A stretch of DNA of 64,000 nt, from assembly GCA_964016885.1 (NCBI GenBank), contig OZ024751.1:25296001-25360000 (forward strand), read 5' to 3'. This document shows positions 209-47,384 of this stretch, piece by piece. Position 1 is the first letter of the stretch, and every line of letters starts with the position of its first letter. The notes below the pieces were generated by a model, which saw nothing but the letters and a program-made list of their open reading frames with translations, ran no database searches and was not told where the DNA came from. The position numbers and the translations under genes were made by a program. The DNA comes from Eledone cirrhosa (taxonomy: Eukaryota).

Positions 209-386
209 TGAGATTCTACAGGACTAGAACTGTTTCATTATTTAGAAATCATCAGGAATGATGATTTCTAAAGAATGAAACAGTTCTAGTCCTGTAGAAT
301 CTCATCTATATTAAAACTGTTATACTCTGCAATGTATTGAGTACCTTACTTACTGTGGTTACCTCCGATTCAACCCGGAATAACGT
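209..386 (+). mobile_element. PLE-like fold-back insert in (TA)n, family F
   Basis: Inverted arms 209-255 and about 259-304, plus an unpaired tail of about 80 nt, between TA tracts. Confidence 0.75.
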
Positions 387-2299
387 ATATATATATATAG
401 TTTCATGTGCGTGTATCTGTTTTCTTTAAAGCCAATCTTATTGAAAATACTTCTAATCTTCCATACCAACATGGAACATCATTTAGAATGAATGTGGAAG
501 AAAAACGATAAAAAGTAACATTTTTTTCCTATTAGTAATCAAAACCAACTATACGAAAATCGATTAAAAATTTTCTTTTTTTCTTGCAACCAAAAAATGT
601 GGATTAGTTAAAAGAAAACATCAAATCACTTTTTGTTGAATATAAAATCTTTGTAAGTATTGAAATCTATGGATGGATGCAACGTTATAATATTTTTATC
701 AATTTCAATCTTGAGAATTCAATATTAATTTAGCAATTTTAGCTAATTAATAGGGAAATATCTATAGCCAATCAATCTTACGATGCGTAAAGATTATTTA
801 AAATCCAGCTACTATAATCTCTTTATTATATTCGAGCGGTTTCTTCGCTTATGATTGTATATAAATGTATAAATGTATATGTATAAACGTATATAAATAT
901 ATATGTATATATATATATATATATATACATATGTATATAATTATATATATATATGTATATAATTATATTGTTATACTTGGGGTGTAATATTACCAGATTA
1001 ATAACAGAACACGCTGTTTGGTTGGTTTTCGCTTTTCGCTTCTGTTTTATATCGGTAATCTAATTTATTCGGTCCTCAATGTTGCCATTGACTGACCAAC
1101 GGTCAAAAATACAGATACAATATAGACACAAACACATATATATAGTTTATGAAAGTTCTTTCGAGTGTGTTCTGAGTGTGTTCTGTTATTAATTCTGGCA
1201 ATATTACACAAATATGACCCTCCCCAAGTATAACAATATTTGTTTCGACACACGATTTCATATCAAAAACCTCGCAAAACTATATAATTATATAATACGT
1301 ATGTATATAATTATATATATATATGTATATATACGTATATATATATGTATATTTAAGTATATATATAAGTATATATATATGAATGTATGTATAGTATATT
1401 TGATAATACACTCTATGTTTATTTAACAACATTTTGAAGACCATTCGCTATGAATTTTAAAGTGGTAACTATGTCACTTACTTGGTCTCGGCAAAAAGAA
1501 AGGGAAGTAACTGACGGCTGTTCCTCGCTCGTGAGCGGTTATCAAGATTGCAAATTCCTTCGCTTCAGCCGAGATTGATAGAAGCTGGATTCTTATAGAA
1601 TTCCAGTGATGTTTAGCTGGTTATATATATATATATATATATTACTCTTTTACTCTTTTACCTGCTCCAGCCATCCGGCTGAGGCCATGCTGGGGTATAT
1701 ATATATGTATATCCGGTTGGCATTTAATGTCCGGAAAGGTTTTAGGCACTACCATTGTTACTGTCGCACTATTTCTCGCCATGGGACTTGGAGACTGAAG
1801 CCGAATGCTAACATCGTATTGTAGAGCGATTAGAGACTGAATTTGTCTAATAAGCAATCTTTCACTAACTTATTAATTTGTGTTTGAGATACATTGGCTG
1901 AGTGATTATGGCGGGAACATATGCATGTATGTGTTCAAATCGTAATGGACCAGAAACGCTAAGGTGAAAAAAATACTAACTATAGACAATAGGGTTTGCT
2001 AGACTCAATTTAAGAATAAATCAAGAAAAATAAATACAAACCAGTATTGTGGTAACTACGTCCATTACGATTTGAACGCATACATGCATATGTCTGTGTT
2101 AGTTTTTCTTTTTTGTTCAGTTATACTATATATATATATATATATATATATATATATATATATATATGTGTGTATGTGTGTGTGTGTGTAAATATAAATT
2201 AGCGAGAATCGTATTTCAGCTCAGGAATTAACGAAAAACAACTTCCGAGATGTGTGGCAAGCGGTGGATATATATATATATATATATATATATATATAT

Positions 2300-2492
2300 A
2301 ACGAAGGAAATGTGGTAAGGAACCAGGTGGACCATAACGCACCAAAGTACTCAATACTTAGGGTAGTAGAGTGGGTAATAGGAACGAGTAGGACCCCGAC
2401 GGCTGAGCTCAAGCCGTTTCGACAGCTAATTCTGGTACAGAATTAGCCGTCTAAATGGCTTGAGCTCAGCCGTCGGGGTCCTACTCGTTCCT
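2300..2492 (-). mobile_element. PLE-like fold-back insert in (TA)n, family A
   Basis: Palindrome GGAACGAGTAGGACCCCGACGGCTGAGCTC...GTTCC plus an 80-nt tail. Further copies at 4497-4694, 11140-11318, 14433-14625, 25227-25400 and 28874-29088; partial copies at 45-163, 2758-2850, 30555-30718, 47678-47815 and 60010-60376. Confidence 0.8.
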
Positions 2493-44757: not shown

Positions 44758-45166
44758 TAAGCACACATATCCTATATGCTTTTATACACACACACACACA
44801 CACTCACAAACACACAGACTCACATACACGCAGATATAATTATATATTTATATATATATATATATATATATATTTCAAGGGTACCAAAATTTTGGTTCGC
44901 TCTCATCAGATAAAATACAAAGTTTGTTTTATAAATAGTGACATGCCCAGGAATGAGACCTTAACGTTTCAAGTTAAGCTGTCGAGTGCTTCGAAACTGT
45001 TATAAATATATTTGTTAAATTACCAACAAATTAAATATCCTTTTGCTTATATATATATATATATATATATATATATATATATATATATATATATATATAT
45101 ATATATATATTATATATATATATTAATTCAAAATATTAATAAAATAGATATTCTTGTGATCAAGTA

Positions 45167-45233
45167 TATTTTATTATACATATTTCAGAGGTACTGAGTT
45201 AACTTCAACAGTACGTCCTCATCAGATAAAATA
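45167..45233 (-). ncRNA. Type I hammerhead ribozyme motif (family D)
   Basis: Minus strand: TATTTTAT CTGATGA GGACGTACTG-loop-CAGTACCTCT GAAA TATGT ATA| ATAAAATA. Confidence 0.9.
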
Positions 45234-47384
45234 AGATGATGCATGACATACCCTGACATAGTAGATGGTTAAGATTCAGTCATGGTAGTGAGTAATATAT
45301 GACAAAACGCATTCTTTGATTTATTCATTGAACCTTGTTTAACTTTTAAATATATATATATATATATATATAGAGAGAGAGAGAGAGAGAGAAAGAGAGA
45401 GAGAGAGAGAGAGAGAGAGAGAGAGAGAGGTGGGGGAGAGAGGTAGAACACTGGAAGGTAATATCCGTAGTAGTAGAGAACTCAGTCCATGGGACGAGTT
45501 TGGTAGAAGTAGTAACACAACAGTTAGTTCACCATACCGAGAACAATTGTTCTCGGTATGGTGTACTAACGGTTGTGTTACTACTTCTATATAGCAGTAA
45601 ATAAAGGATTATGAGTTCATGCAATTGACTTATGTTTCATCACTATATATATATATATATATATATATATATATATATATATATTTATATATATATATAT
45701 ATATATATATATATATATATTTATACATATGTATGCATATGTATGTATACACACACACACATATATATATATATATTCGTGATTGATGGTGATAACGTGG
45801 ATGGTAGGAGAAGATGAATGATAAGATAATTATCAAATGTTTTCTCAGATTTTTATCATTATATCTATCTCAATCTCGATATATAAACCTCCAGGCATCT
45901 CTCAATGTAGAAAACAGGCAGTGAATACCAGACAGAAGCTAAAAGAATGAGAGTTTTGGCTTGTTTAGCATCTGTCGACCTGTTAAAAATAGGACCGTAC
46001 TCCCCTCTATTAACACGCTGCACAAAAAAAAAAAATGAATGATATTCGAATATTCAGTGTTCTCCAACATAGGATCCCTTCAGAGTGCGTCAATCTCGAC
46101 AACCTGGGAACCTCCATGACATCTAGCAATTTGCTAGAAAATGCTAGCTAATACTCCTCAAATACCACCCAGTGAAATTTCAGACATTAAGAAGTCTAAG
46201 GCATATTTAACAGTGTCGTTCTAGATAAGGAGGGAGAATAACCCTTTACGCCTGATACAAAAGTAGAGGCGAAGTCTTTTCGCACGGTTTATCTTGGGTG
46301 TTAGAAACATGGCGGAACACATAACCTTCAAGGTCCAGAGAGAAAGATAGGCTGAGAGAGAATGTGCCAAAAACAGAAAGAGAGAGAGAGAAGGGAGAGG
46401 AAGAACCAGCCCTAGTACATTGACCTCATTAAATTCGACACCCTAATGATCCTTTGAATCACTCCGAGTATGTAACGTTTCGGATATAATTCTGGTCACC
46501 AAGGGATGACCTGGATTAAACAACAATAGTAGGATCTACACCAGCAGATCTAACAGCAAAAACAACAAAAACTCTATCAACATAACACAATATTAAGCAA
46601 TACCCAGATTTGATATGCGTTATTTATACAAGTGTACCAGATGTTATCTTTCGAATAATTTTTAGAATTTTATATATGTTGATTCTTCTTCATAAAGTAA
46701 CAAGGACTTTTTGTTTCAGTAAAATTTGGGTTATATGTGTGTATATAAATTAGTGCAGATGTCTGCGTATATATATATATATATATATATATATATATAT
46801 ATATATATACACATATATTAATAAATGTGTGAGTGGGAGTATCTCACCGAGAAAACTTTAAAAAATAGATAAAAAACGGAGATTTCGGTCAAATTGTCTC
46901 GTGAGATTTTGGTATGCACCCAATTACACAGACAACTCTCAAGTCTACCTTGTCAGAAATTTAATGAACTGATAATTAGACCGTCGTAAACATGAAACAT
47001 ATATACGACGATATACTTCACAAATTACCTTATAAATAAACAAATAAATATACTAGATATCAGTTTTCAGCTAGTTATGCCTGTGACTGGGTGTAACCCA
47101 ATTGTGTCCATCACACGCACTGATTCACTAAATCAACATGATAAAATATCTCACATTTTTGTTCCTGTTTTCACTTGCAAGACTACCCTGTAGTCAACCT
47201 GACTATTACCACCATAACCAACACGATATATTTTCCACTGAATCCAAGGAAAGCACCTGTAGCAGTCCTTTGGTCGATAAAATATAGTACCATACAATTA
47301 CTGGGGTCAATATCCACTCGTTCAAATTTACCGGCATTGTGTCAATGTTGGCAGTAGTAATCGCAGTGATAGACACATTTTTCC

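Follow-up and report, generated by a model that had tools for sequence, protein, structure and literature searches.

Paired bulged hairpins in the leader of Hydra-clade Penelope-like elements of Eledone cirrhosa, a candidate signal for the start of reverse transcription

Among Penelope-like elements (PLEs), Poseidon from Anolis carolinensis (PAc) encodes a reverse transcriptase (RT) that starts at positions +111-118 of its RNA and requires RNA up to +172 (Frangieh et al. 2024, PMC11167929). In the available part of that paper a binding motif is hypothesised within the 172 nt and is not mapped; since RNA to +172 is needed for a start at +111-118, sequence 3' of the start is required, which supports a docking reading. 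For the Hydra clade of PLEs, the available part of Craig et al. 2021 (PMC8557442) lists a single frame with an RT followed by a C-terminal GIY-YIG endonuclease, a hammerhead ribozyme in the pseudo-long terminal repeat (pLTR), insertion into (TA)n, an RWK-type motif, DKT in place of DKG, a CxCX5C linker, no CCHH motif, CxxC and CxH towards the end of the endonuclease, and a length generally <3 kb, which is given as usual and not as diagnostic. A mapped signal would bear on the choice of two internal start sites by PLEs and on the inverted, one-tailed form of their insertions. The present study concerns a stretch of 64,000 nt of Eledone cirrhosa (assembly GCA_964016885.1, OZ024751.1:25,296,001-25,360,000, forward strand), referred to below as the window, in which the initial annotation had noted a short hairpin ahead of TA runs. 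This hairpin is one of a pair, here called H1 and H2, found in the leader of Hydra-clade PLEs, and the ends of insertions lie about 5 nt upstream of each.

Full-length copies run from the hammerhead through H1, the tail end and H2 to the ATG. H1 lies within the tail; H2 stands just past it and is excluded from tailed ends. The spacing between the two hairpins is 71-101 nt in 17 of 18 references, and the ATG follows H2 at 13-62 nt. A two-hairpin pattern has 3,430 matches in the source genome against 563 for the control, both counts including satellites. Fifty loci were examined: 30 matches taken in order from the first, and 20 selected manually among 100 listed so as to cover other families. 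The Hydra open reading frame (ORF) directly follows H2 in 29 of them, the other 21 being satellites, inverted repeats and copies without an ORF match.

The relation of the hairpins to insertion ends was assessed in 864 kb comprising the window, 200 kb flanking it and 600 kb from eleven other contigs, the 800 kb outside the window having been chosen blind to the motif. The sample contains 1,635 usable TA-run junctions. The motif ends 30-79 nt before the TA run, on the expected strand, in 82 of 84 upstream matches; the reversed-pattern control has five matches upstream of TA runs, two of them at this distance. When TA junctions were mapped onto 16 references, after F173 (a microsatellite in the reference and no ORF match) and F184 (a doubtful H1) had been dropped and 22 internal TA runs removed, 122 junctions were obtained. 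With TA microhomology allowed, 94 of them overlap positions -7 to -4 of a hairpin, 45 at H1 (11 families) and 49 at H2 (10 families), while random TA dinucleotides of the same references gave 14.7 +/- 3.5 (largest of 2000 draws, 28). A further set of eleven references with H1 only, from families outside the first set, placed 22 of 36 junctions within the same offset.

Among 116 classified ends, 64 pair into 32 two-ended insertions and 52 are unpaired. Each of the 32 joins one H1 end with one H2 end, and insertions with both ends of the same kind (1+1 or 2+2) were found in 0 of 32. Thus all 32 show the two fixed ends, the one-sided tail and the inverted arrangement that characterise PAc insertions. 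H1 aligns with the tail-less end and the tail junction aligns with H2; as the ends lie about 5 nt before H1 and H2, the tail begins immediately upstream of H1 and stops immediately upstream of H2. The distance of 45-70 nt between hairpin and TA junction noted earlier varies by family, and the fixed quantity is the position of a hairpin about 5 nt downstream of each end. Because tailed ends sit at a fixed distance from the H2 that they exclude, reading of the signal on the template and not on the product is the best-supported inference.

The consensus hairpin has an RCUC/GAGY lower stem, a 2-nt U-led bulge on the 3' side, an upper stem, a variable loop and RCU 3' of the stem. Relaxed 3'-arm matches before TA runs numbered 152, and the 5' arm is exactly complementary in 95 of them, spread over 17 of 44 clusters, at least one of which (c24) is, to judge from the flank, H2. 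In the 17 tail clusters the upper stem has a mean of 3.0 bp when the bulge is 2 nt long, as compared with 0.60 in 2,000 shuffles (largest 1.59), and with bulges of 0, 1, 3 or 4 nt the pairing is at the null level. The first bulge base is U in 30 of 34 cases, the first upper pair is C-G in 14, U-A in 10 and U-G in 2, and the lower stem is ACUC/GAGU in 14 and GCUC/GAGC in 20. The predicted stability of H2 is mostly -2 to -6 kcal/mol. The 3' arms and the 5' arm of H2 belonged to the search pattern, and the 5' arm of H1 was picked by a score favouring RCTC, which leaves the bulge and the upper stem as the only parts unaffected by selection. When ten families were compared, 9-10 of them shared the arms and the bulge U, and mostly 3-7 shared the flanks. 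Conservation is thus confined to arms and bulge, and the upper stem covaries, as counted by script on family representatives irrespective of the tree; this speaks for a conserved structured cis element. For family 13601, an alternative pairing GCACT/AGTGC was considered and rejected; the long pairing fits both the shared shape and the minimum free energy. One H1 (L065:7430-7549) has a structured loop of about 50 nt and belongs to the same family as the window hammerheads at 30819, 35109 and 55754, showing that the motif tolerates large inserts.

In the window, the pattern ACTCN{8,38}GAGTDCY has 19 matches (16 distinct 3' arms), whereas 100 shuffles gave 1.8 +/- 1.4 (largest 6). One subtype, TACTCN{8,30}TCGAGTGCTC, has 8,422 matches in the 3.0-Gb source genome against 25 for the reversed pattern. 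All ten hairpin sites of the initial annotation are present at their coordinates with minor corrections. The site at 323 ends in GAGTACC and not in CT, a better 5' arm for the site at 23642 begins at 23648, the site at 41432 is followed merely by a short TA run, and 45477-45500 is an AACTC/GAGTTCT version with a 1-nt bulge running into (TC)n ahead of the TA. From the end of GAGTRCT to the TA run there are 40-62 nt at 8 of the 10, those with a measured distance. The listed copies are real, and the list had overlooked six further copies of the 4621 family and four GCTC/GAGC variants. Among the 150 of 291 matches listed, an Rfam scan of the window showed microRNA-like and untranslated-region matches on repeats and no fitting family. 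The H1 hairpins of the window are as follows.
324..345, plus strand: H1 of family 323, 3' flank ACC; no H2-bearing copy found
4622..4648, plus strand: H1 of family A (4621); H2 and a 717-aa ORF in L186
5100..5127, minus strand: H1 of family 5128; H2 and ORF in L141 and L188
6635..6657, plus strand: H1 of family 6634, young, with an intact 737-aa ORF; inner CAAAT/ATTTG
13602..13644, plus strand: H1 of family 13601, 6-bp upper stem; H2 and ORF start in L048/L147
23648..23669, plus strand: H1 of family 23642; H2 and ORF start in L180
27474..27501, plus strand: H1 with a 6-bp upper stem
36941..36964, minus strand: H1 of family 36965; H2 and ORF in L182
41432..41479, minus strand: H1 of a relative of family 13601
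45477..45499, minus strand: H1 variant with a 1-nt bulge; no clear H2 copy was found in the family, H2 in the relative L183
2346..2372, minus strand: H1 of family A, overlooked initially
2817..2843, plus strand: H1 of family A, diverged, without a tail end
11185..11211, minus strand: H1 of family A
14553..14579, plus strand: H1 of family A
25328..25354, plus strand: H1 of family A
29017..29043, plus strand: H1 of family A
12155..12203, plus strand: H1 variant with a GCTC/GAGC lower stem; same family at 29154-29202 and 30403-30451
23164..23187, minus strand: H1 variant GCTC/GAGC, 33 nt ahead of a TA run

Tandem satellites of GAGTGCT or GAGTACT units also occur (L154-L157, L162, L168-L170), and the units of L162 look like hairpin-type GCTC...GAGTGCT repeats.

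Fifteen motif families are linked to a gene and each encodes its own RT; on sequence grounds they are Hydra-clade PLEs. The RT cores are 38-92% identical, so the families are homologous. It follows that the idea of a conserved cis element in the tails of unrelated PLE families holds as regards a conserved structured element and fails as regards unrelatedness, and the proposed single shared RT/endonuclease gives way to homologous Hydra-clade RTs, one per gene-linked family. The RT tree holds families of this genome only. Single ORFs of 717-809 aa with an RT followed by a C-terminal GIY-YIG endonuclease were found in L115, L186 and L188. All three have YRDD; the endonuclease motif is YVG/YIG in two and YFG in L188. 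An RWK-type motif together with DKT is present in L115 and L186; L188 has DKT but RWT, and L171 has RWR but GKT. The CxCX5C linker, CxxC and CxH occur in all three full-length ORF types, with no CCHH seen by eye. In the predicted fold of the Hydra ORF (pLDDT 73), telomerase RT structures were the top matches, while a Pfam search assigned no family to the ORF piece L016 and missed Hydra ORF pieces.

The elements insert into (TA)n as described for the Hydra clade, and the unit length of 3.5-4.0 kb (tandem periods of 4,011 bp and about 3,542 bp) exceeds the usual 3 kb. A hammerhead core lies about 105 nt upstream of H1 in families 6634, 13601 and 36965 and is also present in L235. The window contains 27 hammerhead cores by regular expression, which found none in the short copies of family A, and is also rich in short inverted insertions in TA runs; among the Rfam matches listed (150 of 291) there was no hammerhead. 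A non-LTR retrozyme, a tandem of hammerhead units that lacks a protein gene, was rejected as the carrier, as the Hydra ORF stands right after H2 in 29 of 50 loci and the short window copies are truncated inverted insertions. Family 6634 was probably active recently. It is very young and abundant, with 93,294 first-look candidates genome-wide; the 83 matches that were scored, which include full-length copies, have 97-100% identity, many contain intact 738-codon frames (for example, C7:78452852-78462367; L111-L140), and some are arranged in tandems with a period of 4,011 bp. The 737-aa ORF encodes an RT and contains DKT and a CxCX5C linker; CxxC and CxH occur late, and CCHH is missing. Copies of differing Hydra families are often nested in each other's TA junctions, forming chains of tails (L191-L198, L199-L204). 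Further parts of these elements in the window are the following.
21509..21529, minus strand: decayed H2 before a broken Hydra ORF
20451..21474, minus strand: broken Hydra-type ORF (N-terminal part and RT) in four pieces, 36-46% identical to the 737-aa protein
6272..6719, plus strand: complete two-ended inverted insertion, left end 5-7 nt before H1 and right end 3-6 nt before the H2 position
4496..4693, plus strand: complete two-ended insertion of family A; same pattern at 2300-2491, 11139-11318, 14433-14624, 25226-25399 and 28874-29088
5043..5222, minus strand: complete two-ended insertion of family 5128
45122..45350, plus strand: complete two-ended insertion of the F176 type
6529..6570, plus strand: hammerhead ribozyme core about 105 nt upstream of H1
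13497..13533, plus strand: hammerhead ribozyme core upstream of the H1 at 13602
37031..37067, minus strand: hammerhead ribozyme core upstream of the H1 at 36964

We consider it probable that the paired hairpin is an RNA docking signal that sets the start of the RT, with one hairpin about 5 nt downstream of each insertion end. A transcript reading through one unit into the leader of the next would carry both H1 and H2. With both hairpins bound, the RT-endonuclease would nick both strands of the (TA)n target, and the 3' ends of the cut DNA would each anneal through 1-3 bases to a UA just 5' of a hairpin and be extended from there. A cDNA primed at H2 would contain the tail, namely the spacer including H1, together with all upstream sequence; one primed at H1 would contain the upstream part only. 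Head-to-head joining of the two cDNAs would then produce an inverted insertion with a tail on one side. The assumption of two protomers, one per hairpin, is borrowed from the predicted dimer of Poseidon, a member of a different clade, and is the weakest step. The paired hairpins would likely explain the one-sided tail of Hydra-clade insertions.

A number of observations weigh against this account. Fifty-seven of the 152 tail matches have no exactly complementary 5' arm, and the upper stem of H2 in 17 references, at 1.29 bp against 0.50 in the null, only equals the largest shuffle, one row (F175) of that count having taken the wrong arm. Twenty-eight of 122 junctions fall outside -7 to -4, many of them at -8 to -13, and five of these strays lie at a TA run just after the hammerhead GAAA, -57 to -69 from H1 (window 40942, 44872); they may have been primed where the ribozyme cuts, or may stem from later insertions into the TA run of the element itself. 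In the H1-only set 14 of 36 junctions miss the offset, including three tail-side ends and two at -62, and the ends of family 323 range between -19 and -5. A search of the genome for copies of families 323 and 45501 with an H2 gave 8 and 6 matches, none of them a clear leader. The pairing in 32 of 32 insertions is not new in itself, because the one-sided tail is already reported in the available part of PMC8557442. Counts of G-U against A-C pairs, 4 versus 2, do not discriminate RNA from DNA, and a hairpin-guided cut of the RNA would give an identical footprint.

Such a cut, made about 5 nt upstream of each hairpin by a host RNase or the element's own protein and followed by ordinary target-primed synthesis from the new 3' ends, predicts the same offsets and the same pairing of H1 with H2; moreover, Anolis RNA-seq read ends coincide with start sites (available part of PMC11167929). 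The same source describes an enzyme that starts inside the RNA and yields a main product of constant size when 3' sequence is added. A cut before H1 would also remove the template of the tail, so that two RNAs would be needed and 1+1 or 2+2 insertions expected, of which there are none among 32. We regard cutting as unlikely and prefer docking of the RT on two grounds: initiation by the Anolis enzyme is internal and depends on RNA reaching about 55-60 nt past the start site, and insertions with two ends of one kind are absent among the 32.

It is less probable still that the motif is read as DNA, the endonuclease recognising the tail hairpin as a cruciform or folded-back cDNA for second-strand cutting or insertion into the element's own pLTR. 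The Drosophila Penelope endonuclease needed the tail to recognise plasmid DNA, as cited in the available part of PMC11167929, and the strand test is neutral here; yet a DNA signal gives no account of the fixed distance between tailed ends and the H2 that those ends exclude. About as poor a prospect, and marginally the poorer, is control of translation or RNA packaging by the hairpins, with the ends arising from TA microhomology in single-stranded RNA beside any stable stem. H2 is close to the start codon and the ends do use TA microhomology, but a null of TA alone accounts for 15 of 122 junctions against 94 observed, H2 is often barely stable and nevertheless marks ends as sharply as H1, and its distance to the ATG varies while that to the end is constant. 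That the motif is a functionless relic of common descent is hardly credible: although the families linked to a gene are all homologous, 9-10 of 10 families retain arms and bulge as against mostly 3-7 for the flanks, upper stems change sequence and retain pairing, and the motif spans four phyla.

In long and short interspersed elements, such as eel UnaL2/UnaSINE1, a short 3' stem-loop of the RNA is proposed to be bound by the RT and to select the template; it is single, lies upstream of the start and is copied. The analogy drawn initially with these stem-loops stands in so far as the PLE hairpin is a short RNA stem-loop, a cis element plausibly bound by an RT, and breaks down in geometry, there being two copies, each downstream of a start, with H2 left out of tailed ends. 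The hepadnavirus epsilon element primes at its own bulge with a protein primer, and telomerase copies a short template repeatedly. At the level of role, the hairpins may resemble epsilon and the TERT-bound elements of telomerase RNA, in which a bulged or branched RNA fixes the RT beside the template start.

The closest likeness is to PAc, with two start sites, the tail between them, an AT-rich target cut on both strands, an upstream hammerhead and a need for RNA 3' of the start. In the available part of PMC11167929, PAc synthesis starts in an AC-rich stem loop and the tail is 30-40 bp long, whereas here the ends lie about 5 nt 5' of the stem, the spacing is 71-101 nt and the pair precedes the ATG. 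The elements share protein motifs, hammerhead and (TA)n targeting with the published Hydra clade, whose own consensi contain the hairpin; the units here are longer, and in the available part of PMC8557442 the words hairpin and stem-loop are absent from the main text and the Hydra section is silent on a leader motif. No description of the motif for PLE tails was found in the searched literature, which lacked most subscription papers and Repbase notes. The motif is a real and conserved cis element, belongs to a known retroelement clade and is apparently undescribed.

The motif was sought beyond this genome and is present in Hydra consensi of a coral, a sea cucumber and a copepod and in three metagenome contigs. 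Six new Hydra consensi in the available supplement of PMC8557442 were read by eye. A perfect H1 stands in the tail of coral Hydra-2_Amil and of sea cucumber Hydra-2_Ajap. Hydra-1_Ajap starts with two perfect hairpins ahead of the ATG. In copepod Hydra-1_Crog a GCCC/GGGC version precedes the ATG and the version in the tail has one mismatch, and Hydra-1_Obim has a near match before the ATG; no hairpin was seen in the examined 3' end of Hydra-1_Amil. An exact-heptamer search of the same supplement, covering 22 of 22 places for two heptamers and 29 of 44 for three others, showed by eye no such hairpin in a Naiad or Chlamys context, the line breaks of the file hiding matches. A metagenome scan gave six Hydra-like contigs (L235-L240). 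L235 has a hammerhead, H1, H2 and ATG, L239 has H1 and, by eye, H2, and L236 has one hairpin by eye; L237 and L238 contain no 5' leader sequence, and no hairpin was seen in L240, whose intact frame covers the C-terminal part only.

Some families of the window do not have the motif. One of them serves as a control:
26904..27153, plus strand: pLTR and tail of a non-Hydra PLE family without the motif

This family has two ends and a tail without RCUC/GAGY and leads into an ORF; in copy L206 the RT has YVDD and a CX4CxxC linker, and therefore is not of the Hydra clade. Both ends are followed by TATCG and later by GCTAA(A)CAA, as seen by eye in L205-L216, and the tail can adopt a similar bulged fold whose lower stem is GTTT/AAAC. 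This is possibly a clade-specific duplicated signal. A 335-nt inverted repeat, 97% complementary, at 26185-26984 is a two-ended insertion of the same family. Family 42144-42274, likewise motif-less, is two-ended and TA-inserted with a tail of about 40 nt (L221-L233), and leads into a 447-codon frame without RT motifs and unlike Hydra. Other apparently motif-less copies of the window are tail-less ends (24990-25085, family F179), variants, or the long-loop form (L065).

More broadly, PLEs in general might carry a duplicated RNA docking signal, one per protomer of a dimeric telomerase-like RT, with both ends primed from one RNA, the tail length equal to the spacing of the signals and a signal proper to each clade. 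We hold this only as a tentative and rather doubtful generalisation. Two hints outside Hydra, both by eye, are the TATCG and GCTAA(A)CAA that follow both ends of the non-Hydra family above, and the PAc RNA of PMC11167929, in which a second GAAAG follows the first at about 34 nt, a distance close to the length of the tail. If the generalisation is true, the hairpin pair would be a portable module fixing both ends of a programmed insertion. For the Hydra clade, the RT of which is sister to telomerase, a pair of 20-45-nt hairpins with a fixed offset offers precise targets for mutation, young intact copies are available in the source genome, and the motif can serve as an annotation marker of the elements and their true ends.

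Apart from the PLEs, the minus-strand stretches 8306-9040, 18201-18638 and 32708-33340 resemble by eye fragments of the RT or endonuclease of non-LTR retrotransposons. On the plus strand, the open frames 61191-61556 and 62137-62817 have by eye the appearance of host exons, which we take to be of the von Willebrand A / inter-alpha-trypsin-inhibitor-like kind.

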